Origin: Candidatus Rokuibacteriota bacterium
GTDB taxonomy: Bacteria; Methylomirabilota; Methylomirabilia; Rokubacteriales; DASRDR01
Direction: 5' to 3'
DNA length: 64,000 nt
NCBI GenBank assembly: GCA_044867785.1
Contig: JBIOVM010000175.1
Location: forward strand, 9,091-73,090
The first letter of the stretch is position 1, and each line of letters begins with the position of its first letter. Both the position numbers and the translations under genes were made by a program. The notes under the pieces were generated by a model. It saw only the letters and a list, made by a program, of their open reading frames with translations. It did no database searches and was not told the DNA's origin. Of this stretch, positions 5,901-29,142 are shown one piece after another.

Positions 5901-6536
5901 TCGGCCTACGATGACTGCATCCGCCGCTTCGCCGACAAGTCTCGCTGGATCGCCTTCATCGACCTCGACGAATTCCTCTTCTCGCCGAAGTCGCGCGACC
6001 TGAAGCACGTCCTGCGTAACTACCGGGATCTGCCGGCGATCTTCGTGTATTGGGTGCTCTACGGATCGTCCGGGCATGTCTCACGCCCCGATGGCTACGT
6101 GATCGATTCCTACACGCGCTGTCTGGACCTCGAGGCCGCCGGCGCCGAGCGGTTCGATCACGGCCGGGACGAGAACTATGTGACGGGATGGGCGCGCGAC
6201 GGGAAGTCGATCGTGAATCCGCGCAGCGTCGTCAAGATGGGTGCGCATGTCCCACGGGTCCTGAGATCGGGCGAGGTGGTCGACGAAAACCGCAGGCCGG
6301 CCCTGCGCCGTGGCGGCGCCAGTCCGATCACCTGCGACTGGCTGCGGATCAATCACTATTGGTCGAAGTCGATCGAGGACCTGAGCGAGAAGGTGGAGAA
6401 GGGCGACATATTCGATCGTGCCCGCCCACCGCGCAGGCTCGAGACGTGGCTCAGGCGTGAGGCGTGCTTGAACGTAACCCGCGACGAATCGATCCGGCTG
6501 ATCTGGGCGGAGATCAGGAAGGAACGGGGTCTTTAA
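2943..6536 (+). CDS. Fusion: AMP-binding (acyl-CoA ligase-like) + acyl carrier + thioesterase-like (Cys nucleophile) + GT92/GT2-like glycosyltransferase
   Basis: A-domain motifs LTSGSTGRAK, FGMTEAG, FRTGDLG, GRIKELINRGGEK, LPRNAVGKID; ACP LGGNSL; TE GGNCQGG and GVHGG; C-terminal AIFRDEARFLSEWLHFH..VDHFFLYD..WIAFIDLDEFL..INHYWSKS. Confidence 0.85.
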   Translation: MTVERPVGAEGPCSDILSLLRRRAAAHPERTAIEAEDGEVLTYAALLARTEGLAAALRSRDEVRQGGSRIGIVLPNGLAMSQALLAVSCVGVALPYNPAYTEPEFEAYFRDMALDALLTRPSFVPTAVRVAARLGVPVLDLDVVGQETRDANDLSAPAPDAITMVLLTSGSTGRAKRVPLSHGNVCTSARHVSRSMGLGPDDRCLSMWELYHIGGLVDLLLAPLDAGSTVIATAGFDAPRFFDLLDRARPTWFQGVPATLGEIALHARRAGIDPRGSSLRLLRSVAAALPPALMSELETLFGVPVLQTFGMTEAGPLITSTALPPAERAAGSVGRSCGTEVKIFAPDWTTIIDGTEGEVAVRGPNVFAGYEGDSAANAEAFRDGWFRTGDLGRLDAAGNLYLTGRIKELINRGGEKVSLREVDDALLCHPAIREAAAFPLAHRTLGEDVAAAVVLQPGAAATPAELRVFVAGRLAGFKVPRTIIFLDVLPRNAVGKIDRRAIAQEAGGLPATQSADLTRLSGSEAQIAAIWVRELDLRAIGLDDEFATLGGNSLSALRVLLAIEKELGKALPDDAIANNTTVRSLARALSSRDAGDVARSADAAGTLSQSERQQILAIAGTGAIPALAPGSTLKVVNRGGTRRPLIWFFNSPSREMKVMSQCLPPDQPLYGGFSGAGMFDWNDSRRMSGIAELYAAELLDRFPHGSFAIGGNCQGGRVGWMAAKLLQEAGREVDALCFLEFSDPELTQFDGRLLMMFGKQSVSRHYRPIRWGRPGWDTSFSHRPVVSWIDGVHGGFWRDETVPGLVDVLLRFLDGRPVRRNTLDSTLGRALMFIHRSPHLFRLYCACHEIKTRLRSGNRFGLRRARPIVHRADQRLSQHPAEARISVGGRRRQTWTNRLRGLRAAFAKPSRRRVARDDFPYELSVAAIFRDEARFLSEWLHFHDGVGVDHFFLYDDDSSDDFLAILGPWISAGKVTLIDGRGKDQVSAYDDCIRRFADKSRWIAFIDLDEFLFSPKSRDLKHVLRNYRDLPAIFVYWVLYGSSGHVSRPDGYVIDSYTRCLDLEAAGAERFDHGRDENYVTGWARDGKSIVNPRSVVKMGAHVPRVLRSGEVVDENRRPALRRGGASPITCDWLRINHYWSKSIEDLSEKVEKGDIFDRARPPRRLETWLRREACLNVTRDESIRLIWAEIRKERGL

Positions 6537-6793
6537 CTAGGCCGCGCGGCTGGCCGAGATTCGAGTGTGACGTTCTGTGGTCATCCAGGACGACATCGGG
6601 AAGATACCGGAGGAGAATCACGTGTGCTTGCTTCCGGTGCCCAGCTTCGTGCCGATGTGGGGGCGCAGATAGCGGCCACCAGGGACGTCCCGCTGCGATA
6701 GGGTCCCCGCGATGACGAGCGGCACCGTGCCGTGGGCGGCGATCCGGCCGTGGAGAAGCGCGGCCGGCGACTCTTTGCTCATTCCGTGGCCTG

Positions 6794-7639
6794 CTAGCGC
6801 GTGATTCCCCAGCGGCGCCGGAGGCCCTGCGCGATCCGACGGGGGACCAGGTAGACGATGGCCGAGCGGACCAGTCCAAGGTAGCAGTGGACGTCGTACG
6901 GCGAGAAGTAGCGTAACTGGACCACGATCCGGTCACGCTCCGCGGCACGGCGATGCACGCGGACGACCGAGGGCCCGGACTCGGACCTGCTGACCAGCAC
7001 CTTGGGGACATTGGCGCACGGGAACTTCTCCGCGACCCGGCGAAAGAGATCGTAGTCCTGGGCCAGGTCCACGCTCTCGTCGTAATAGCCGACGGCCCGC
7101 AGCACACTTGTCCGCATCATGCAGGTCGGATGGCTGAAGGCCGTCCGGTAGCGCATCCGGCGTCGAATGGCGCCCCAGTGCTCCGGATAGTGGGTGTGGA
7201 ACAGCGTGCGTCCGTTCGCGTCGACGTGACGCGTGAAGCCCCCGACCAGCGCTACCTCGGGATGGGCCTCCAGGTACGCCAGCTGGGTGGACAGCCGGTC
7301 TCCGAGATCCAGGTCGCCCGCATCCTGGCGAGCCACGTAGGTGTACGGTCGGGAAAGGACATAGCGTAGACCGACGTTCAGCGCGGCGGTCACGCCGCGG
7401 TTGACGGGCTGGCGGAGTAGCACGACCGGATGGACGTAACGCGCTGGATCGATGAGGGTCGGAGGGATGCTGCCGTCATCGACCACCACGATGTCGAGGT
7501 CGGAACCCTGGGCATCGACCGAGTCGAGCGTACGGGCCAGATCCTCGACGGCGTTGTAGACAGGGATCAGCACGGCCAGGTTGGGGACGCGTCGACAGGG
7601 ATCGCTTCGGAGGCGGCCCTGACCGATCGCAAGTGGCAC
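6794..7639 (-). CDS. Glycosyltransferase family 2
   Basis: VLIPVYN, VVVDDGS, ARQDAGD, HPT, AQDYDLF. GTG start inferred 7 nt from a TATACT box; the longer track ORF is the antisense shadow of the GT4 gene. Confidence 0.9.
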   Translation of the reverse strand: MPLAIGQGRLRSDPCRRVPNLAVLIPVYNAVEDLARTLDSVDAQGSDLDIVVVDDGSIPPTLIDPARYVHPVVLLRQPVNRGVTAALNVGLRYVLSRPYTYVARQDAGDLDLGDRLSTQLAYLEAHPEVALVGGFTRHVDANGRTLFHTHYPEHWGAIRRRMRYRTAFSHPTCMMRTSVLRAVGYYDESVDLAQDYDLFRRVAEKFPCANVPKVLVSRSESGPSVVRVHRRAAERDRIVVQLRYFSPYDVHCYLGLVRSAIVYLVPRRIAQGLRRRWGITR

Positions 7640-8938: not shown

Positions 8939-11253
8939 TCGACGCCTCGCACGGCCGAGCGTCCGTCAGCCAGGAGCGAGCGATAGTCCGGCGGCAACAG
9001 GGCGGTGGTCATTTCGGGGGCCAGTCTCACTGACCCGCGGGGACGGGTGCGCAGGAGATAGCACACCGCGTGAGCCCACAGAGGCGGTGGAAGGATCGCC
9101 TGCAGCGCCCAGAGCTCCGGGGAGGGCAGTTGCTCGCTCTGCGCGTGGTCGTGAGCGCTCGTCAAGGTGCCGGCGACCACGACCGGGCGCCACCGCTGCC
9201 TGCGCCCGGGCCGGCGCCGAGCAGGGGATCCAAGGCTCGTTGTGGGTGCCAGAACGTAAGCCAGGAACGAGCGCCCGCCAGGAACCCGCGAAAGGGCGTC
9301 CCGTAGCCAGCCGAGCAAGGGCCGAAGGGCCGACGCCCGCAACAAGCCCACGAGCGCCGCCGTCCCGCTGCCGCCGATCAACGGGACCTCCTGAATCTGA
9401 TCTCGCGACCAGTCTGGAATGGGCGGGGCCGTGACCGATGCGGCCCGGGTCGTGGCCTCTCGAGCCAGGGTATCGAGGACGACTTCCCAGCGCGCGGACT
9501 CGGCGGGGTAGCTGAACCCGCGAATCGCCGCCGCGACCAGCACGGGAACCCCGGCGACCTGCACGAAGCCCGTTCCCTGGAGCACCAGCTGGCAAAGCGC
9601 CCGGTCGATGGCGCCGGGCTCCAGCCGAGAGCCGGCGCGGATGAAGGACACGCATTCCTCGGTGGTCGTAGAAACGGCAGTGGCCGCCGTTTTCCAGGCG
9701 TTCGTCTGCGATCGCAGACGTGTTGTCCCGGAGACGCGCGAGCCTCTCCGCCCTTGCGACAGGATCGTCACGGCGACCGGCTGATCCGCGACCGTGGCGA
9801 GCGTTCGCCGCAGCTTGCCGCGCTCACCGCGCCTGGCGAGAACGAACAGCTCGACTCCATTGCGCTCCGGCTGCCGTCGATCCAGCTGCGGGCGAGAGTC
9901 GGGCCGCCTGGAGCTGTGTCTGACCGCTCGGGCCATGAGGGCCCGGTAGTGAGCCTCCATCTGCTCCGCCACCTGCCGGTGATCGAAGCGCTTCTCCGCC
10001 CGGACCCGCGCTGCGGAGCCCAGCCGCCTTCGCAACGGGGCATCCCCGGCCAGGCGGACGATGGCAGCGGCGAGTGCCAGCGGATCGCCCGGGGGGATGA
10101 TGATGCCGCTCTCGCCATCGACGACGTACTCCGGCATGCCTCCGGCATTCGTCCCGATCACCGGGATGCCGGACGCCATGGCTTCGACGCAGGTGAAAGG
10201 CGCGTTGTCGTAGTACGAGGGCACGACCGCGATGTCGGACTCCTGGTAGACCGTGGCCACGCCACCGAGCGGCACGGGGCCCTCGAACCGCACGCGGTCG
10301 TCGAACGAACGGTCGGTCCGGTCGGCGAGCAGGAGCGAATCGCGGCCCACGATCCGGAACTCCACCGCGGGATTCCGGGCCAGCACCAGGGGAATGGCCT
10401 CCAGAAGGACATCCGCGCCCTTCCGCTGATCCAGGCGGCCGACGAAGCACACTCGGACCCGGTCGTCTCGCCGAGAGCCAGGCCTGAAAACGGACAGATC
10501 GACCGGAGAGGGAACGATCTCCACTTCACGGGCCAGGCCGAAGAACGTCACCGCGCGGTCCGCGAGATCCTGGCTGGCCGTGGTGAGACCGTCCGCGCGA
10601 CCCATGAGCATGCCTTCCAGCACGGCCACCGAATCGGTGTCCAGAGCCGGCCACGGCTGAAAGCGCATGGCGGCGAGCATGGACAACGGGGTGTACAGCC
10701 GCACGGTCTTGGGGCCGTGCCAGCGTAGCGCCGGCCAAAGGCCATCGGCCGCGTAGTCGGCGAGATCGATCACGTCGAAGGGCCCGTGCGCTTGCTCGAC
10801 TTCCTGCAGCTGCCGGGAGGCCGCCAGGCTCCAGAAGAATACCGCCGGACCCACGGTGAGCTGCCCCGCCAAGGCGAGCGCTTCGAACGATCGGCGTTCG
10901 CTCCTTGGACGGGGTGCAATCCGGATGACGTCGGCACGGCCATCGAGCTCCCGCCGGGCGGAGGGCGTTCCGAGCGCGATGATGGTCACCCGGTGCCCTG
11001 CCTCCACGAGCCCGCAAGCGAGACGGTAGGTGTACGTCGCCATGCCTCCGTAGGCGGAATCCGGCGGGTACTCGCGGCAGATCAGGGCAACGCTGAGCTT
11101 GCCCGGCGCGGGCCGGGTCGCCGGCTCGGGCGGAAGCTGCAGCACCAGGCCTTCGAGCCGCTGCAGGACTGCCGCCGGATCAGGTACGACTCCACCATCG
11201 CGGACTGCTTGCACGCAGCGATCGAAGTAGGCGCGGAACATCCTCAGAGCCAT
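8935..11253 (-). CDS. Glycosyltransferase family 4 with long C-terminal extension
   Basis: ICREYPP..YGGMATY, FVGRLDQRKG, PSYYDNAPFTCVEAMASG; about 330 extra C-terminal residues. Confidence 0.85.
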   Translation of the reverse strand: MALRMFRAYFDRCVQAVRDGGVVPDPAAVLQRLEGLVLQLPPEPATRPAPGKLSVALICREYPPDSAYGGMATYTYRLACGLVEAGHRVTIIALGTPSARRELDGRADVIRIAPRPRSERRSFEALALAGQLTVGPAVFFWSLAASRQLQEVEQAHGPFDVIDLADYAADGLWPALRWHGPKTVRLYTPLSMLAAMRFQPWPALDTDSVAVLEGMLMGRADGLTTASQDLADRAVTFFGLAREVEIVPSPVDLSVFRPGSRRDDRVRVCFVGRLDQRKGADVLLEAIPLVLARNPAVEFRIVGRDSLLLADRTDRSFDDRVRFEGPVPLGGVATVYQESDIAVVPSYYDNAPFTCVEAMASGIPVIGTNAGGMPEYVVDGESGIIIPPGDPLALAAAIVRLAGDAPLRRRLGSAARVRAEKRFDHRQVAEQMEAHYRALMARAVRHSSRRPDSRPQLDRRQPERNGVELFVLARRGERGKLRRTLATVADQPVAVTILSQGRRGSRVSGTTRLRSQTNAWKTAATAVSTTTEECVSFIRAGSRLEPGAIDRALCQLVLQGTGFVQVAGVPVLVAAAIRGFSYPAESARWEVVLDTLAREATTRAASVTAPPIPDWSRDQIQEVPLIGGSGTAALVGLLRASALRPLLGWLRDALSRVPGGRSFLAYVLAPTTSLGSPARRRPGRRQRWRPVVVAGTLTSAHDHAQSEQLPSPELWALQAILPPPLWAHAVCYLLRTRPRGSVRLAPEMTTALLPPDYRSLLADGRSAVRGVD

Positions 11254-11391
11254 GGTAGATCGGCTCGATCACGAGCCAGGCCGTATGCTAACCCCAAACG
11301 ACAAGTGAGTGTTACGGTGGATCAATCGCCTCCGGGCGAGGATGGCGAGCCTGGGCCCATCCCGAGAGCGTCTCCGACTTCCGACCGAACT

Positions 11392-11463
11392 CTAAGCGGC
11401 CTGTCCGGCAAGGAGTGCGATCAGGGACACCAACTCGTACGCGTGGACCGGCTTGGCGAGGTG
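11392..11463 (-). pseudogene. C-terminal stub of a response-regulator receiver domain
   Basis: Reads HLAKPVHAYELVSLIALLAGQAA*, the KP motif and helix 5 of a REC domain; nothing REC-like upstream. Confidence 0.6.
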
Positions 11464-11611
11464 GCGACATCAAGAACAACGCCTGCGTCGGGGACCAGGC
11501 CTGTCAAGGCAACGCGGGTGTTGTTGGGAATGGCGCCTGCGTCGGGGGGGACGCCTGCGCGTCAAACACGGGCGACATCAAGAACAACGCCTGGGTCGGG
11601 GACCAGGCCTG
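11463..11611 (+). repeat. 41-bp near-perfect direct repeat, 108-bp spacing
   Basis: ggcgacatcaagaacaacgcctg(c/g)gtcggggaccaggcctg at 11463 and 11571. Confidence 0.85.
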
Positions 11612-20618: not shown

Positions 20619-21533
20619 TCATCCGCGAAGTTCTAGGGCGGTCCGATGGCGCCGGGGGGCGATCGCGATCCTCTCGCCGGTCGGCAAGGGGCTGCTCGGG
20701 GGAAGCGGGCAGTTCCGGCACAACGCGTACCGATCGCGGAAGCCCGCCTCGAGATCCCTGACGAGACGCACGTGACGCTCGGAGAACCACAGCTCCTCCA
20801 GGGTGTTCCGGTGGATGCTGCCCAACCCGAAGGCCCCGTGCGTGTCCTCGCAGCAGTTGCAGATTTCGCCGTCCCACTGGACGATCATCCGGATCAGAGG
20901 ACGCCGACACGGGGCGTTCGGGAATCTGAGGTCCGGGACGCTCATCCGGGCGTCGGTCGGCACCAGGGCCCGTGGGATGGCCATGCTCGCGCCCCCCTGG
21001 CTCCCTCGCCGGCCGATGGCACTGAAGTCGAGCCGAGGGCAGGTCAGGCGCGCTCGCCAGAATCGCTTCTCGGCTTCGAGCTCCTCGTCCGAGCCGTAGT
21101 CGTAGAGCCCGACGACGACGTGCTCGTAGACCGCGCTCACCTCGCGGCACAAGGGGGCGTTCCGCCGCAAGGCATCGCCGTTGGTGTGGAGCCACGGCAC
21201 GAGCCCGCGTCGTCGCGCCTCGCGAGCCAGGCTCACGTTGCGCGGATCGAGCAACGGCTCGGAGTAGTGATGGAAGCCGACAAGGCCTCGGAACCCGAGC
21301 GTCCGCGCCTGATCCAGGATGTCCAGGATCGTGTCGGTGGGCATCGCGCGGATCACCGGTCCCCCCGAGGGATCGAGGTACTTGCCCGTGCGGTCGTAGG
21401 TGCGTGGGCAGAACCAACAGGACCGGTTGCAGTTGGACTGCGACTCCAGGCAGAGCTGCTCGAAGAGCGGAATCGCGTCGCGCGTCATGGGCGGCGTCCC
21501 GCGGGGCTCGCCGGCACCTCGCGACCCCGCCAT
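20619..21533 (-). CDS. Radical SAM protein with SPASM/Twitch domain
   Basis: CNRSCWFC (CX3CX2C), YSEPLLD, LHTNG, CRRP..MIVQWDGEICNCCED..GSIHRNTLEELW..CRNC; GGAG RBS before 21533. Confidence 0.9.
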   Translation of the reverse strand: MAGSRGAGEPRGTPPMTRDAIPLFEQLCLESQSNCNRSCWFCPRTYDRTGKYLDPSGGPVIRAMPTDTILDILDQARTLGFRGLVGFHHYSEPLLDPRNVSLAREARRRGLVPWLHTNGDALRRNAPLCREVSAVYEHVVVGLYDYGSDEELEAEKRFWRARLTCPRLDFSAIGRRGSQGGASMAIPRALVPTDARMSVPDLRFPNAPCRRPLIRMIVQWDGEICNCCEDTHGAFGLGSIHRNTLEELWFSERHVRLVRDLEAGFRDRYALCRNCPLPPSSPLPTGERIAIAPRRHRTALELRG

Positions 21534-21633: not shown

Positions 21634-22320
21634 TCATTCCGCGCGCCCTCGCCGGCGGTCGAGGTGTCGCTTGACCAGCTGCGTGTAGTCGTCGCGCTTC
21701 TGGCGCTCCCGGCTCATGTTCATGGCGTGCAGCCGCCGCCGGACGAGCACTTCGGCGAGGACGTCGAACACGACGCGCCGCTCGCGCGCGCGGATGAACC
21801 AGTCACGGCAGGCGCCCGTCCTCAGCTCGGGATCGTACGGGCCCACCCGCGTGAAGACTTCGCGGCGGGCCAGCATGGCCGGGCTGCAATATCCGGGCAG
21901 GGGCTCCAACGAAGGTCCCGCGAGCGGGTCGGTCCGGTTGCCGTCCTCATCGGCCCAGAAGTTCTGGATGTACGTCACGTTGGCCTCCGCCTCGGCTCGT
22001 GCACGAAGGCGGTCGACCTGGCGCGCGATCTTTTCCGGGAGCCACACGTCATCGGCGTCGAGGAAGGCGATGAGGTCACCCCCGGCGGCGGCGATTCCCC
22101 GGTTACGGGCCGCCGCGAGGCCGGCATGCGGCTGCTCCACGCACCGTACTCGAGCACCGAACGCGGCGATCACGTCGCGCGTCCCATCGGACGACCCGTC
22201 GTTGACCACGACGACGTCCAGGGGCCGGTACGTCTGTCGGAGCACGCTGTCCAGGGCCTCGGCCAGATAGCGCTGGCCGTTCCAGACCGGCACGATGCAG
22301 CTGACCAGCGGTGCAGTCAT
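21634..22320 (-). CDS. Glycosyltransferase family 2
   Basis: VSCIVPVWNG, VVNDGSSD, ARNRG, FLDADDVW; ATGA overlap with the upstream gene. Confidence 0.92.
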   Translation of the reverse strand: MTAPLVSCIVPVWNGQRYLAEALDSVLRQTYRPLDVVVVNDGSSDGTRDVIAAFGARVRCVEQPHAGLAAARNRGIAAAGGDLIAFLDADDVWLPEKIARQVDRLRARAEAEANVTYIQNFWADEDGNRTDPLAGPSLEPLPGYCSPAMLARREVFTRVGPYDPELRTGACRDWFIRARERRVVFDVLAEVLVRRRLHAMNMSRERQKRDDYTQLVKRHLDRRRGRAE

Positions 22321-23483
22321 CGGGGCCCCGTCGCCGCCGCGGCCTCGGGCGAGGACGGCACCAGCCGTGTGTACAGCGCGTCGAAACTCGCCGTGCACCG
22401 CGCGAGGCCGAAGCGGTCACGCGCGCGCTCGCGAGCGGACCGGCCCATGCGCCGGGTCCGCTCAGGATGCGCGAGAAGATCCAATACCGCCCGCGACAGG
22501 CCTTCGACGTCGTCCTTGGCGGCCAGCCGACCCGTCTCTCCGTCGGCGACGACCTCGGCGAGCCCGGACACCGCGGTCGCCACGACGGGCCGCCCCATCA
22601 GCGCCGCCTCGATGGCCACCAGCGGCAAGCCCTCGCGGCGGGACGGCATCAGCACGAGCGTGGCCCGATTGATCACGGCCGGAACGTCTTTGGGAGCCAC
22701 GGCCCCGACGAAGCGGACTCCCTCGCCGAGACCGAGCTCACACGCCTCGCGCTCGAGACGCGGGCGCTCCCCCCCGTCGCCCGCGACCACCAGGCGGACG
22801 CCGGGCACGCGCCGGCGAACGTTGGCGAGCACCCGAAGGGCCACGTCGAACCCCTTTTCCGGCACGAGACGACCGAGGCAGAGGATGCGAGGAGGCTCGA
22901 AAGTCAGTTCGGCGGGAGCCTCCACGGGCTCCCTGACGGCATTGGGGATGACCGAGCTCCGTCTTCGCACCGAGGGGAACGCCTCGGTCACCTGGGCCAG
23001 GACGGCCGCGGATACGCTCACCACCCACGCCGCCTGATGAAGGACGCGCCGCAGCATCGAGCCCTGGCCGGAAGCCTGGCTCGCCAGCAGCTCGCCGTGA
23101 AGGTGGACGAGCAGCGGCACCGCGCGGGTCGCGGGGGACGACAGCGGCAGGAAGTAGGCACTCGGGCCGACGGGGCTCAGGTGGATCAGGTCGGGAGCCA
23201 TTTGCTCGACGAACGCGGCGACCTCACGCCGCAGTCCGGCGATGGCGCCGGTCGATCGGGACGCCACCGCGGGCCGGAACGGGAACCGATGGACGGGGAT
23301 GCCGCGATGATCGTCGCGGTCGGGGAGGCTGAGCCAGTCGTGCGAGGTCACGACCACGAACTCGTGGCCCTTCGCCCGCAAGGTCGGCAGGAGCTCCGCC
23401 GCCATCGTCTCGTTTCCGCCGATGTAGGGTCGGAAGAGCTCGGACCAGAACAGGACGCGCACGCCGCGAGGGGGGCCCATCAT
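22317..23483 (-). CDS. Glycosyltransferase family 4
   Basis: VLFWSELFRPYIGG, LGRLVPEKG, PSRREGLPLVAIEAA; ATGA overlap. Confidence 0.92.
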   Translation of the reverse strand: MMGPPRGVRVLFWSELFRPYIGGNETMAAELLPTLRAKGHEFVVVTSHDWLSLPDRDDHRGIPVHRFPFRPAVASRSTGAIAGLRREVAAFVEQMAPDLIHLSPVGPSAYFLPLSSPATRAVPLLVHLHGELLASQASGQGSMLRRVLHQAAWVVSVSAAVLAQVTEAFPSVRRRSSVIPNAVREPVEAPAELTFEPPRILCLGRLVPEKGFDVALRVLANVRRRVPGVRLVVAGDGGERPRLEREACELGLGEGVRFVGAVAPKDVPAVINRATLVLMPSRREGLPLVAIEAALMGRPVVATAVSGLAEVVADGETGRLAAKDDVEGLSRAVLDLLAHPERTRRMGRSARERARDRFGLARCTASFDALYTRLVPSSPEAAAATGPR

Positions 23484-24559
23484 GCGGCCACCCGGTCCAG
23501 GATCTCCTGTACGCGCCCGGCGATCTCCGTCAGATCGCGACCGAGATTCAGTCGATACGCGGGGATCCGGTCGACCAGGGTGGCGAGCGCCTCCGCCCCC
23601 GCTCGGCCCGGGCTCGGGACCCACGCGAGGAGGGAGCTCTGGACCAGCATCCGGAAGGCCTCGGCCTTGCCGAGGGGTGATGAGCAGGTCCGCGATGCGG
23701 TGGCGAGGCGAGGCAGCACGATCGCCCGCAACGGGACGCTCCGCAGCAGGCGGATGCCCGGCACCCGGCTCAGCAGGACCAGGGCCTTCGGCTCGGCCGG
23801 CGGGCGCCCCGGGAGGGCGTGCCCGGCGAGGCGGCCGAACCGCTCGAGGTCCTCGGGGGCTATCCGGCTCGAGCCATACACGCTGTGCCCGGTGAAGCCG
23901 CCGCCCGGCGCCTGCTCGACGGCCACGAGATCGTCACCGAGATAGGCGAATCCGGCCTCGACACAGAGGAGCGCACAGGTCGTCTTGCCCACGCCTCCGC
24001 CGCCCGCCACCAGCATGCCCTTCCCCTTGGAGGCGACGAGGGCGGCGTGGACCGCGTGGACGCCGCGGTCCCTGAGCCAGATGGAGAGGAGCGGTGTGAA
24101 AGGCTTCGCCCGCTCGCAGAGCGGCAGGCCGGCGGCGTGCGCGTAGCATGCCACGACGTGCGGGCCGCGACGGTCAAGCCATGCGAGGGCCTCGCCGCGC
24201 TCGAAGGTCAGGTGACGATCCGCCGCGGCCGTCGTCAGCATCCCCCCGTCACAGGGGCGGGCACTGTCCCCGTGGACCCATCCGTGGCCGGCCCGGCGCC
24301 CCGCGCGCGGGCTGGGGATCCCCGTCGCCCCGGCGTCCCAGACGTCGGCGTGAACTGCGGGTGGCTCCTCGCGCTCCGGCTCGGACCGCAGGTGAGAGAA
24401 GACAGCGTCCAGGCTGCGCGCAAGCTCGGCACCGACGACCCGGAGCCGCGTCGGCGCCCCCGCGATGACGTAGTCCTGCACGACCAGCTGAGCCGCCGGT
24501 GCCTCACGCGCCCGCCGGAAGCCATCGGCGAGGTGCCCTTGGGCCTCGGCGGCGTTCAT
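23480..24559 (-). CDS. HPr kinase-like P-loop kinase
   Basis: VHAALV...GMLVAGGGGVGKTT...YLGDDLVAV (HprK-type His, Walker A and DD motif); ATGA overlap with the PqqD gene. Confidence 0.85.
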   Translation of the reverse strand: MNAAEAQGHLADGFRRAREAPAAQLVVQDYVIAGAPTRLRVVGAELARSLDAVFSHLRSEPEREEPPAVHADVWDAGATGIPSPRAGRRAGHGWVHGDSARPCDGGMLTTAAADRHLTFERGEALAWLDRRGPHVVACYAHAAGLPLCERAKPFTPLLSIWLRDRGVHAVHAALVASKGKGMLVAGGGGVGKTTCALLCVEAGFAYLGDDLVAVEQAPGGGFTGHSVYGSSRIAPEDLERFGRLAGHALPGRPPAEPKALVLLSRVPGIRLLRSVPLRAIVLPRLATASRTCSSPLGKAEAFRMLVQSSLLAWVPSPGRAGAEALATLVDRIPAYRLNLGRDLTEIAGRVQEILDRVAA

Positions 24560-24972
24560 TCCGTTGGCTTGAGCGATGGCATGGGCGGGTCGAGCGCCAA
24601 CAGGTCGGCCATGTCCCGATACGCGTGAAGGAGGGGGGCGGTGTACTCGCCGGCCCCGAACCCCGGCACGGTGATGGACGGGCGCGGGTGGGCCTCCGCC
24701 TCGGCGACGAGCAATTCCTCGCGGACCAGTTCGGTCACGAACCGCCCGACGTCTTCCCCCGCGCGATCCCGGGACAACCCGAAGTGCTCGGCCACCTTCG
24801 TGACGATGTCGCCCAGCGACGTCCCGGACTCCAGGAGCTGCCACACGACCGCGGCCGAGCCTTCGGCGCTGTAGTATCGGCCGCTCTGGAGGTGGATCAT
24901 GACGGCTTCCCCGTCGAGTACCGACGCCGCCACGGTCTCGGGACACCGGAACCGCCTGGTGTCATCCAGCAT
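24556..24972 (-). CDS. PqqD-family RiPP recognition element with C-terminal leader-like tail
   Basis: VLDGEAVMIHLQSGRYYS..GSAAVVWQLL...DVGRFVTELVREELL (RRE), then YTAPLLHAYRDMADLLALDP. Confidence 0.9.
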   Translation of the reverse strand: MLDDTRRFRCPETVAASVLDGEAVMIHLQSGRYYSAEGSAAVVWQLLESGTSLGDIVTKVAEHFGLSRDRAGEDVGRFVTELVREELLVAEAEAHPRPSITVPGFGAGEYTAPLLHAYRDMADLLALDPPMPSLKPTE

Positions 24973-26077
24973 GCCCTCGCCTCCTCTTCAACGACGCATA
25001 GTGGTCGAGATAGGCATCCACACATGCCTTCCACGGGAACACGGTGCGGGCTCGGGACCGAGCCTCCTGACCCATCGCGAGCAATCGTGCCGGATCGGAC
25101 AGGAGCCGGACGACGGCCTCGACGAGCTGCGCGGGCTGGTCCGGCTCCACCAGGACCCCAGTCCTCTCGGGCTCCACGACTTCGACCAGCCCGCCGACCC
25201 GCGCCGCGACGACCGGGCGGCCCATGGCGGCGGCTTCGAGAGCCACGAGCCCGAAGGCCTCGGCCCGCGATGGGACCAGGACCAGGGACGCATGATTCAG
25301 GAGCGCGGGGACGCCGGCAGGGGGGACCGGCCCCCTGAACTCCACGCAATCGTCGATCCCGAGTCTCCGCGCCTGCGCGCGTAGCGGGCCAGCCTCGGGG
25401 CCCTCTCCCGCCACGACGAGTCGGGCCGCGGGCACGAGCTGCCGCAGCGCCACCATGGCGGCGACGGCGACGTCGAACCCCTTCACGCGCACGAGGCGTC
25501 CGACACAGAGCAGCGTCGGCGGCTCGATCGGCACGGGCGTGGCCTCGGCCCACTCGATCCCGTGATGGACGACGGACGAGCGGGCCGGCACGATGGGCGC
25601 GATCGCGGCCGTCTCCCGGAGGACGGCGTGTGAGACGCCGACCACCCAGTCGGCCTGCGTCAGCACGCGCCAGAGAAGGGTTCCGGGCGAGGGGCGATGC
25701 CGGATCCACCCGTGGATCGTGACGAGGGTCGGCGCGGGCCACGCCTCGCGGGTGACGAGATGATAGAAGACACTCGGCCCCAGGCTCGACAGGTGGACGA
25801 CGTCGGGCCGAAACGCACGCTTGAATCCGGCGACGGCCTCGCGGATGGCGAAGACCCGCGCGCGATCGGCCCCGGCCAGCGATTCCCAGAACGGGAAGCG
25901 ACAGACCGGCGTCGATCCGTCCTCGACGCGGCACCGATCGTCATCGTTCGGGTCATTCCCCGTCAAGACGCGAACCTCGTGATCGCGCTCCGTCAGGGTG
26001 CGGACGAAGCGCGCGCCCCAGACCTCCGCCCCCCCGATCGCCGGGGCAAAGGCTTCCGACCAGAACAAGACCTTCAT
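24962..26077 (-). CDS. Glycosyltransferase family 4
   Basis: MKVLFWSEAFAPAIGG, VGRLVRVKG, PSRAEAFGLVALEAA; paralog of 22317-23483. Confidence 0.92.
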   Translation of the reverse strand: MKVLFWSEAFAPAIGGAEVWGARFVRTLTERDHEVRVLTGNDPNDDDRCRVEDGSTPVCRFPFWESLAGADRARVFAIREAVAGFKRAFRPDVVHLSSLGPSVFYHLVTREAWPAPTLVTIHGWIRHRPSPGTLLWRVLTQADWVVGVSHAVLRETAAIAPIVPARSSVVHHGIEWAEATPVPIEPPTLLCVGRLVRVKGFDVAVAAMVALRQLVPAARLVVAGEGPEAGPLRAQARRLGIDDCVEFRGPVPPAGVPALLNHASLVLVPSRAEAFGLVALEAAAMGRPVVAARVGGLVEVVEPERTGVLVEPDQPAQLVEAVVRLLSDPARLLAMGQEARSRARTVFPWKACVDAYLDHYASLKRRRGHAG

Positions 26078-26596: not shown

Positions 26597-28414
26597 TTAG
26601 GAGCTCGGCCCGCCCGCGATCTTCTTGATCGTCCGCTCGGCGACCGCACGATTCGGGGGATCGGCCGCGACCACGTCCTGAAGGTCACGCACGGCGCCCG
26701 TGCTCGCCGGGGCCATGGCGCCGAGCGCCATCACGGCGGCAGCGCGCACCAGCTCATCCGGGTCCTTCAGGGTGCGCACGAGCGCGGGGACGGCGTCCGG
26801 CGCCGCGTCCCGGGCTCGCATGAGGGCGAGAGCGGCCGCCTGGCGCACGCTGGGGTGCGCGTCGGTGAGCGCGCGGCTCAGCATCCCGCCCGCCGCCGTC
26901 GGCGGGCCGGACGTGGCCAGGAGCCCGACGACGGCGCACTGCCGGATCCGGGCATCGGGATCGTCGAGCGCGTCAACGAGGACCGCCGTACCCTCCGGGA
27001 TCGCAAGCTTGGCGTTCAACAGCGTCACCGCCGCCGTCGTTCGAACGCCGCTGTCCGGATCCTCGAGCGCCCTCGTCAGCGCGGCGACCAGCTCGGGCGG
27101 CCACGGCGGATCGAGCATGGGCACGCTCGCGCCCCAGCGGCGGCGGCGCGGATCCGCGCTCAGGAGCGCCCGCACCGTGTCCGAGGATTCATGGGCCCGT
27201 GCCGCCGGCAGGAGTCTGGCGGCGTCGCGATCCTCGAGGCTCGCCTCCCGCATCGCGCGGACGAGCGTCGTCACGACCGCGTGATTGCCGGGGTCCGTTC
27301 TCAGCACGCCCCACGCGGCGACGAGGCGGGCGAGAGGATCCGGATCGCTCAAGGCTTGGAGCAGCTCGGGCGGGGGGCTCTGGGCCGGCCCGTCCAGCAC
27401 CGTCAGCGCTCCAAGCGCGAAGAGTCGCGTGTCGCGGTCGGGGTTCTTCGTCGCGGCAACCAGCGCCGGTCGCGCGGGCGTGGCCGCCGCGCCGAGGCTC
27501 CCCAGGACCATCGCCGCGGCGCGGCGAACCTCCGGGTCGCGATGCCGCAGGGCGCCGGTCAGCCCGGGCACCACGTCCGTGGACGCCGGCCCGATTTGGA
27601 GGAGGGCCGCCGCGGCGTTCTGTCGAACCGTCGCGTCAGGGTCGCCCGTGAACGCGAGGAGGAGGGCCGGAGCGGCGCTCTTCGCTGCGGGACCCATCAT
27701 CGTGAGGCCCATGCTCCCCGCCCGGCGCAGCGTGACGTCGTTCGCCCTGAACGCCGACACCAGGACGGCCGTGACGGTCTGCGGCTCCTGCCGGGACGTG
27801 GCCATCGCGACCGCGGCCGTGAGCCGAACCTCCGGGTCGGCGTCCTTCAGGGCCGGCGCCAGGACGGACCCGACCGGCCCAGCGCCGCTCCCGGTGACCT
27901 GGGCGAGCACGTTCGCCGCCTTGCGCCGAACCGCGACGGTGGGCGAGGCGAGGTCCCGCCGCCATTCGTCCACGGTGCGGCCTTCGACGATCGCCGCCGA
28001 GAGCTGGGGCGGCAGGCTGGCGGCGACCGCTGGGGCGGACGGAGGCCGTGACCTGCGCGCCGGCGGTGGACTCCCGGCGCCGGGCGATCCCTTCGCGCTG
28101 GGCGCCGGAGCCGGCAGCGCTGACGCGGGTGGGGAAGCGGACGGGGCGGGAGCCGGGAGGGATGGCCCCTCGATCCGCACGACGTCGGCCTTCGGGATGC
28201 GCATGGTTCCGTTGTCGAGGACCATCTCGAGCTCGTCGCCCACCTCGCGCCAGGCCCGCACCTCCACCGTGCCGCCGCTCGTGACGTGGATGATAGCCGC
28301 GGGCGCCTGGGACGCGAGCAGGAGCCCGGTCAACGGGATCACCGTGCGGGCGAGCCTCTGGAGGACCGCGCGGTCGGGACGGGCTCGCCCGCTGGTGGCG
28401 TCGGGGACTCGCAT
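26597..28414 (-). CDS. Exported HEAT-repeat (PBS lyase-like) protein
   Basis: Signal peptide, Pro/Ala linker, roughly 10 repeats of LxDxDxxVRxxAAxAL. Confidence 0.85.
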   Translation of the reverse strand: MRVPDATSGRARPDRAVLQRLARTVIPLTGLLLASQAPAAIIHVTSGGTVEVRAWREVGDELEMVLDNGTMRIPKADVVRIEGPSLPAPAPSASPPASALPAPAPSAKGSPGAGSPPPARRSRPPSAPAVAASLPPQLSAAIVEGRTVDEWRRDLASPTVAVRRKAANVLAQVTGSGAGPVGSVLAPALKDADPEVRLTAAVAMATSRQEPQTVTAVLVSAFRANDVTLRRAGSMGLTMMGPAAKSAAPALLLAFTGDPDATVRQNAAAALLQIGPASTDVVPGLTGALRHRDPEVRRAAAMVLGSLGAAATPARPALVAATKNPDRDTRLFALGALTVLDGPAQSPPPELLQALSDPDPLARLVAAWGVLRTDPGNHAVVTTLVRAMREASLEDRDAARLLPAARAHESSDTVRALLSADPRRRRWGASVPMLDPPWPPELVAALTRALEDPDSGVRTTAAVTLLNAKLAIPEGTAVLVDALDDPDARIRQCAVVGLLATSGPPTAAGGMLSRALTDAHPSVRQAAALALMRARDAAPDAVPALVRTLKDPDELVRAAAVMALGAMAPASTGAVRDLQDVVAADPPNRAVAERTIKKIAGGPSS

Positions 28415-28617: not shown

Positions 28618-29142
28618 CTACGTCCCGCAGACGATGCGCGCCAGGGAATCGGCCAGCCCGTCGGCGATCTTGTCGAGCGCAGGGCCCGGGAGGTTGCCGA
28701 TCGGGTGGTCGCAGTCGAGGAATGCGTAGTCCGGCGCGCCCCAGCTCGCGGCCATCGCCTGCGCCGTCCTGCGGAACGGCGTGGTGACGATCGCGACGGC
28801 CGGCACGCCCTGCTGCTCCATCAGGATGGCGTCGAGCACACTGCTCGACGAGCACGACCCTCAGTCGCCGACGCCGGAGATCACCAGATCGGCATCGCGC
28901 TTCAGCGCGGCGATCGCCTTGGCGTCGACCTCGTGGCTCGGGGAGCGCTTGACGTCCCGCATGGTCACTCGTGTCCCATGCTTGGCGCCCAGCCGGTCGG
29001 CGATCTTCTCCAGGATGAGCCCGGCGTTCACCTTGCGGTTGTCCACCAGGCCGAGGCGCACCCCGCAGAGGCTCGCCGGACGCGGCGCTAGCCGCAGGGT
29101 CGAGGGCCCCGTGGGCTTGCTCGTCGGATCGAAGAGCTTCAT
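28618..29142 (-). CDS. UGSC-family selenoprotein (Sec at UGA 28861-28863)
   Basis: Track ORFs 28861..29184 and 28618..28839 share a frame and are separated by one TGA in GVGD-U-GSC. A hairpin follows the UGA; ATGA coupling to the upstream gene. Confidence 0.88.
28830..28850 (-). promoter_or_regulatory. Bacterial SECIS-like hairpin
   Basis: CGUCGAGCA-GUG-UGCUCGACG: perfect 9-bp stem starting at nt 11 after UGA, with GU in the loop. Confidence 0.75.

Follow-up and report, generated by a model that had tools for sequence, protein, structure and literature searches.

RREs are defined by the binding of a leader that is carried by a separate precursor. The stretch of DNA studied here (64,000 nucleotides of contig JBIOVM010000175.1 from a Candidatus Rokuibacteriota bacterium, in the following called the window) encodes a PqqD/RRE protein with a leader-like tail of its own, which raises the question of whether this tail occupies the cleft of the RRE that precedes it, and to what end. 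A first-pass annotation proposed that the tail, attached by a Pro/Gly linker, folds back into its own RRE and acts either as a fused precursor, i.e., as a substrate of the coupled kinase and glycosyltransferases with Ser, Thr and Asp as acceptors, or as a built-in activator or inhibitor that makes a separate peptide dispensable.

The flagged stretch (24556-24660, minus strand) comprises residues 105-138 and the stop codon of the open reading frame 24556-24972. This stop codon overlaps the ATG of the kinase gene, the two reading frames sharing 4 nt, and the operon runs in the order GT4, RRE-tail protein, kinase, GT4, GT2, and radical SAM/SPASM protein (Table 1). One study supplied three metatranscriptome runs whose contigs cover it evenly at an identity of at least 90%, with DNA carry-over being possible. 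The radical SAM/SPASM protein could be a client of the RRE or a sugar-modifying enzyme; such a gene also lies beside the related cassettes L029, L068, and L070, and other radical SAM genes occur in L087 and L088. Upstream of the operon, a HEAT-repeat protein is encoded (26597-28414, minus strand) that is absent from the other loci examined. A UGSC-family protein (28618-29142, minus strand) is probably a selenoprotein with UGA readthrough: an in-frame TGA is located just before G-S-C, and PF24696 matches both halves.

Table 1. Features of the RRE-tail gene and its operon in the window.
Feature	Position	Strand	Basis or remark
RRE-tail protein, whole ORF, 138 aa	24556..24972	minus	Pfam PqqD; AF2 mean pLDDT 86.6
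RRE domain, residues 8-88, lasso B1-like	24709..24951	minus	Structural matches TbiB1, TfuB1; conservation
Linker, residues 89-109, unconserved	24646..24708	minus	Mean top-residue frequency 0.24; length variable
Putative leader-mimic segment Y110-x-x-P113-x-L115-x-x-Y118	24619..24645	minus	pLDDT, new strand, Y110/D74 covariation
Most conserved motif D-M-x-D-L-L-x-L-D-P-P, residues 119-130	24583..24618	minus	Homologue alignment
Asp128 codon, invariant residue	24589-24591	minus	
Variable C-terminal end (residues 131-138) and stop, overlaps kinase start	24556..24582	minus	
GAGGAGG, Shine-Dalgarno-like	24980..24986	minus	Sequence reading; 7 nt before RRE-tail ATG
HprK/PEPCK-fold kinase, 359 aa; His171, P-loop G186-T193, D209-D210 intact	23480..24559	minus	Alignment, fold
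GT4 glycosyltransferase, upstream; 11-nt overlap with RRE start	24962..26077	minus	
GT4 glycosyltransferase, 4-nt overlap with kinase	22317..23483	minus	
GT2 glycosyltransferase, core cassette member	21634..22320	minus	
Radical SAM/SPASM protein, accessory	20619..21488	minus	Same family in 4/62 loci

Pfam PqqD (PF05402) matches residues 22-88 of the RRE-tail protein (E 2e-15, 57.1 bits against a curated cut-off of 23.4), which together with its wHTH RRE fold places the protein in the RRE/PqqD family. Its best NCBIfam matches are lasso PqqD models, with scores below cut-off. The linker described in the first-pass annotation is present, but it is only modestly enriched in Pro and Gly and not conserved; its length is mostly 19-31 aa across homologues. 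The tail itself had been read correctly and is real beyond chance: a [YF]xxPxL motif is expected about 0.005 times per 50-aa stretch (host genome, six frames), and the tail is conserved in homologues.

Of 149 candidates in a protein search, 76 were hits; the tail motif is present in 75 of these hits, and 52 of them were aligned with the window protein. A profile search of 1.84 billion representatives found 403 proteins at E ≤ 1e-30, 150 of these among those listed. In 260 single-unit homologues, the pattern YxxPxLxxYxDMxDLLxLDP proved to be conserved, with Tyr110 in 92% (Phe in 6%), Pro113 in 98%, Leu115 in 93%, Met121 in 97%, Asp128 in 100% and Pro129 in 99%; Asp128 is almost never replaced by Glu. 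The mean frequency of the top residue amounts to 0.86 for residues 119-130, the most conserved part of the protein, compared with 0.52 for the RRE and 0.24 for the linker. Since the tail was part of the query, some of this conservation reflects selection by the search, and a search with the kinase alone was therefore run as a control. Among 201 genomes from the phylum of the host, it detected 22 family kinases (E ≤ 1e-40), all of which are located in clusters with a tail-type RRE; among these RREs, one is split over two frames and two lack YxxP while keeping the distal motif. Three homologous units without YxxP retain the distal motif. A distal DP[I]H motif was kept after loss of YxxP in L084 and in L119, the latter being a tandem RRE pair.

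The tails fall into two subtypes, DPPxP and DP[IV]H. In the kinase tree, the second (8 of 45 loci) is confined to one side of a branch with strong support; as this agreement consists of a single split, it indicates co-inheritance only. In the host genome, the tail profile matched just the two fused copies and no free one, and the tail alone as query retrieved no PDB chain. A search with the RRE alone for longer proteins yielded a single, already known one, and the ESM Atlas search returned PqqD clusters without names only.

AlphaFold2 predicts residues 111-120 with a pLDDT of 91 and places an extra strand at residues 116-118, while residues 91-100 reach a pLDDT of 67. In the PbaB1-PbaA crystal structure, leader residues -9 to -7 pair with an RRE strand, as described in PMC13381572; counted from the aromatic residue, these correspond exactly to tail residues 116-118. 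The best structural matches of the model are lasso B1-leader complexes, namely TbiB1 (5v1u; VIA Z 12.1, rmsd 1.5, 84 residues aligned) and, in the same numbering, TfuB1 (6jx3; Z 11.8, rmsd 1.6, 85 aligned). VIA also aligned model residues 1-122 to residues 135-1020 of NisB chain 4wd9 (Z 7.2 and 5.9). The high-numbered residues of 4wd9 are, we assume, possibly those of bound NisA leader, and this match was excluded from the evidence.

The leader pocket is intact, as D74, F78, L82, and L87 correspond to D70, F74, M78, and L83 of LppB in a profile alignment. Asp74 is present in 247 of 254 Tyr tails and absent in 37 of 38 Phe tails (other residues and gaps excluded). A tree test of this covariation was not significant, with only 3-4 independent pairs in 129 of 292 rows, so that it may reflect few switches. 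Tandem RREs reveal the same arrangement unit by unit: 17 proteins with two or three RREs contain 42 units, 39 of which are followed by an aromatic leader position of their own, and in six three-RRE proteins unit 1 combines Asp with Tyr and unit 2 a non-Asp residue with Phe. The DP motif occurs once, and only once, per protein in all 17. Judged from sequence and model, the tail is very probably a leader-like YxxPxL segment folded into its own RRE cleft in cis. The fold-back envisaged in the first-pass annotation is supported by the intact pocket, the tandem units and the strand which the full-protein prediction adds at the leader-pairing position.

Gene neighbourhoods were read in 43 GTDB loci, in 18 regions from relatives, on a plasmid of Crinalium epipsammum, and at the paralogous cluster that the host genome carries. 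The 62 loci with a tail-profile hit contain the kinase in 57, GT2 in 56, a PF14907 transferase in 53, GT4 in 33, an MsbA-like ABC protein in 14 and Wzm in 5 cases; B2 and a cyclase-like gene were found once each. In the 37 loci flanked by 5 kb or more on each side (36 distinct ones, since one locus was fetched twice), kinase and GT2 are always present, the PF14907 transferase occurs in 33, and B2 in none. All five loci without kinase end less than 5 kb from the RRE on at least one side. The sole B2 adjoins a second, tail-less RRE; the B2 profile, made of two sequences, still picked up weakly the distant B2s of the sister loci described below. No lasso macrolactam cyclase is encoded in the window, and the one cyclase-like hit among the 62 loci (L069) lies on the opposite strand and stems from a single-sequence profile. 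The family loci contain no recurrent short ORF as a separate precursor, no unassigned ORF family in more than 5 of 63 loci, and seemingly no recurrent protease; an S24/S26 peptidase was absent from the 55 neighbours scanned with Pfam. Because no separate peptide was seen in these loci, the tail appears to stand in for it, as had been suggested.

The window cluster is without a PF14907 transferase, which is present in the paralogous cluster of the same genome (L044:9886-12739, contig C148); some relatives have 2-5 copies of the cassette. Named hosts include Gemmatimonadota, Rokubacteria, Acidobacteriota, Bacteroidota, Chloroflexota, Proteobacteria, and a cyanobacterium. In Crinalium epipsammum, a cultured source, the full cassette (L066) is located on the mobilizable plasmid pCRI9333.04 beside a group II intron. 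The host genome also encodes a lasso-like cluster with cyclase, B2, B1, and kinase (L045, contig C180). There, two YxxPxL leaders (6054-6563 and 6619-7107) are continued, without a change of frame, by a Peptidase_S74 domain (endosialidase chaperone), and four more short precursor-like ORFs lie at 10777-11560.

The kinase scores below the cut-off of Pfam Hpr_kinase_C. Its fold resembles PEPCK (Z 18.4, rmsd 5.2, 303 aligned) and HPrK (Z 15.9, rmsd 2.2, 136 aligned), and the two-domain fold, P-loop, catalytic His and DD motif assign it to the HPr(Ser) kinase/PEPCK group. An assignment to HprK itself was rejected, as TIGR00679 gives 30 bits against a cut-off of 240. Five proteins (P0083, P0089, P0092, P0099, P0141; also L085) join three tandem RREs and the kinase in one chain; their DP motif is internal and confined to the first unit. 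One RRE-kinase fusion gene is followed by GT2, GT2, PF14907 transferase, and Wzm, and in L116 (496-2289) a GT2 is fused to an HprK-like kinase. In a mirror-identity comparison of 45 loci, the RRE correlates with the kinase (rho 0.69), GT2 (0.67), and the transferase (0.49); RRE similarity thus tracks GT2 about as well as the kinase, which is not singled out as partner.

Which known system does this cassette belong to? LPP clusters of Bacillota (Popov et al., Nat Commun 2026, PMC13381572) share an RRE with Tyr-fixing Asp, a YxxP leader, an HprK-like kinase, an uncharacterised NTP transferase, a frequent ABC exporter, the lack of a cyclase and glycosyltransferase-rich surroundings. Their combination of RRE, HprK kinase, and NTP transferase recurs here (kinase 37/37, transferase 33/37 of the well-flanked loci). 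LPP clusters have a separate precursor with conserved Ser3 and an SpI-like peptidase, whereas our family has its leader fused behind the RRE, no conserved Ser, apparently no recurrent peptidase, and a GT2 core; the spacing of the Ser3 phosphosite is taken by Asp128. The bsf (PMC10368454) and psm (PMC6993621) clusters share the B1-type RRE fold, the YxxPxL register, a DD-motif kinase, and the NTP-transferase family. In contrast to these, the family has no macrolactam cyclase, B2, free precursor or Ser acceptor, and a cleavage site formed by Thr or Ile at -2 and a small residue at +1 is missing. Of the hallmarks of lasso clusters in general, the [YW]xxPxL leader is found (Y110/P113/L115) but fused in cis, and cyclase, B2, Thr(-2), and a separate precursor gene are missing. 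With TbiB1 (5v1u/5v1v) and TfuB1 (6jx3) the family shares the pocket and the V24/L26/G31/Y33 patch, yet its leader is supplied in cis, as part of one polypeptide, and the patch has no B2 to recruit. The HPr-rel-A system of NCBIfam (TIGR04352/TIGR04353) likewise combines an HprK-related kinase with a PqqD-like protein, but our kinase reaches 32.6 bits where the cut-off is 200, and TIGR04353 does not match the RRE; other single-unit members also stay below these cut-offs. The module resembles the RRE-kinase-transferase set of LPP and phosphorylated lasso clusters and is a member of neither.

A naturally fused leader-RRE was not described in the main texts searched, a set with few subscription papers. 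It comprises parts of PMC13381572, PMC10368454, PMC6993621, PMC6784204, PMC13622209, and PMC12710340 and of bioRxiv preprints on RRE-Finder, daptides, and TfuB2. Supplements that could list such clusters are Supplementary Data 1-2 of the LPP paper and those of RRE-Finder.

A closer comparison is offered by a sister system, which the kinase-first search revealed in one genus: seven more distant kinases with tail-less RREs and free precursors. Its cassette loci (L100-L105, L114, L121; seven genomes of family f6) contain GT2 or PF14907 and, in the stretches read, no cyclase; a B2 protease is present in all three loci tested by Pfam. One of the genomes carries the fused type too. Ten sister precursors, near-copies of each other, align gap-free with the tail; 5-7 of 21 positions are identical, and the scores are positive also when Y/P/L are set aside. 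Thr(-2) and very short cores are common to all ten, as is a Ser at core position +2 to +5 (seven at +4), and several have an Asp at +2 beside the Ser. In the tail, the Thr(-2) and Ser(+4) positions are occupied by Leu125, found in 90% of the family, and Pro130. The tail thus seems, from its sequence, to have lost the cut and phosphorylation sites of related free peptides. A branch with a support value of 100 lies between the family and the sister kinases; the kinase tree being unrooted, we can only infer that the fused tail arose by capture of a free precursor.

The register of the tail is informative at two further sites. Asp128 lies at Tyr+18, which is the spacing of the LppA phospho-Ser3, and BsfA Ser3 (Tyr+19) falls on Pro129. 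In TfuB1, according to two reports, V24, L26, G31, and Y33 together with leader Phe-6 recruit B2 (bioRxiv 10.1101/2022.04.06.487251; PMC6784204). This surface is kept in our protein (V24, I26, G31, Y33, the latter in 100%) though there is no B2, and M121 is the tail counterpart of Phe-6 in the Tyr-17 register.

In our leading reading, held with intermediate confidence, a self-loaded and uncleaved RRE-leader module docks and activates the kinase, and a phosphate-linked glycan is built on an acceptor other than the tail hydroxyls. With YxxPxL very probably seated in the cleft of its own RRE and residues 116-118 extending the sheet, the RRE would be permanently leader-loaded. V24, I26, G31, and Y33 of the RRE may then form a composite docking surface with M121, L124, and L125 of the tail, which together with the invariant LDP motif could dock the HprK-like kinase and switch it on or position it; the LDP motif, which in lasso systems recruits the B2 protease, would here recruit the kinase instead. 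The tail would be neither cut nor used as Ser/Thr acceptor. The kinase might (poly)phosphorylate another hydroxyl, most likely on a sugar or on a glycan under assembly. The phosphate-linked glycan would be the work of the PF14907 transferase together with GT2/GT4. Overall, a RiPP recognition machinery would have been turned into a constitutive enzyme subunit. Docking and substrate are modelled on three precedents: in bsf the RRE boosts the kinase (PMC10368454), in psm the transferase PsmN is required for hexose on phospho-Ser (PMC6993621), and a kinase-made triphosphate serves FzmU as NTP surrogate (PMC13622209). The presence of kinase and GT2, without B2, in all 37 well-flanked loci, the conserved effector patch, the internal motif of the RRE-kinase fusions, the Leu and Pro at the sister cleavage and acceptor positions, and the tail subtype that tracks one kinase clade argue for this reading. 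Against it count the units that kept the distal motif without YxxP, the non-significant tree test of the Tyr/Asp covariation, and the RRE similarity that tracks GT2 about as well as the kinase. Moreover, no kinase substrate besides the tail was identified, and known HprK-like RiPP kinases phosphorylate peptide Ser in the accounts available (PMC13381572, PMC10368454, PMC6993621). The sequence of the tail itself, with an invariant Asp128 at phospho-acceptor spacing, would fit a substrate role as well.

A substrate role is the core of a more tentative reading, which we regard as possible yet doubtful: the RRE would hold its own leader, the kinase would turn Asp128 into an acyl-(poly)phosphate, and the PF14907 transferase and glycosyltransferases would load a sugar chain onto the protein, an uncleaved primer or carrier. 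It is favoured by the strict conservation of Asp128 in the 260 homologues, its LppA-like distance from the Tyr, the single DP motif per protein, and the lack of any other recurrent ORF as substrate; the published roles of the FzmU triphosphate and of PsmN would also suit it. Asp-Pro may, however, be a mere turn or docking motif, and since several sister precursors have an Asp beside the Ser, Asp128 may be a recognition residue. A further argument against an activated Asp128 is that acyl phosphates are labile. In addition, phosphorylation of a carboxylate by an HprK-fold kinase was not found in the accessible parts of the literature examined, and LppK is reported to refuse even Thr or Tyr (PMC13381572).

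It is improbable that the tail is an autoinhibitory plug, which would block the RRE, and perhaps as pseudosubstrate the kinase site, until a precursor from elsewhere displaces it. D128-P129-P130 do occupy acceptor positions without a Ser, and the host genome does contain free YxxPxL peptides at its separate lasso-like locus. Nevertheless, displacement of a ligand that is tethered and co-varies with its pocket would be difficult, no free peptide recurs in the cassette loci, and those of the host genome come with their own RRE, B2, and kinase, the latter without a match to the family kinases by tblastn.

We give still less credence to the fused precursor of the first-pass annotation, phosphorylated on Ser/Thr and later released as a phospho-glycopeptide, even though the window tail has Ser133 and Thr137 and the enzyme set resembles phospho-glycosylating RiPP clusters. 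Ser/Thr acceptors do not hold as a family rule: no tail column exceeds 31% Ser/Thr, 30 of 259 tails contain neither of the two past Leu115, Ser is missing from 80 (about 4% of rows being mis-anchored by the pattern), and the last residue varies widely. Cleavage is unlikely as well in view of the absence of B2, the apparent lack of any other recurrent protease, the Leu at -2, and the internal motif of the RRE-kinase fusions; this internal position and the single DP motif per multi-RRE protein argue against a released product.

Least probable of all is a tail that serves as folding aid only, beside a vestigial RRE: LppB needs its leader for solubility, being insoluble without it (PMC13381572), and tandem units each retain a strand, but residues 119-130, beyond the cleft-binding part, are conserved most, the effector patch is intact, and an RRE-tail protein lies beside all 22 family kinases.

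The RRE with a fused leader is a real and widespread natural variant of a domain so far defined by binding in trans. As the leader is fused to the RRE, kinase/PF14907/GT clusters of this kind look precursor-less to mining tools. The family offers a one-protein test system for how a leader-loaded RRE activates its partner enzyme and for the role that PF14907 transferases play in the vicinity of polysaccharide genes; no reaction is assigned to LppN or BsfN in the parts of PMC13381572 and PMC10368454 considered. The sister system with free precursors allows a direct evolutionary and biochemical comparison. If the more tentative reading were true, in which a RiPP pathway is condensed into a single chain, with Asp activated as acyl-phosphate and PF14907 and GT2/GT4 enzymes building a glycan on the uncleaved protein, the family would represent a self-recognising carrier or primer for glycan synthesis across many phyla.
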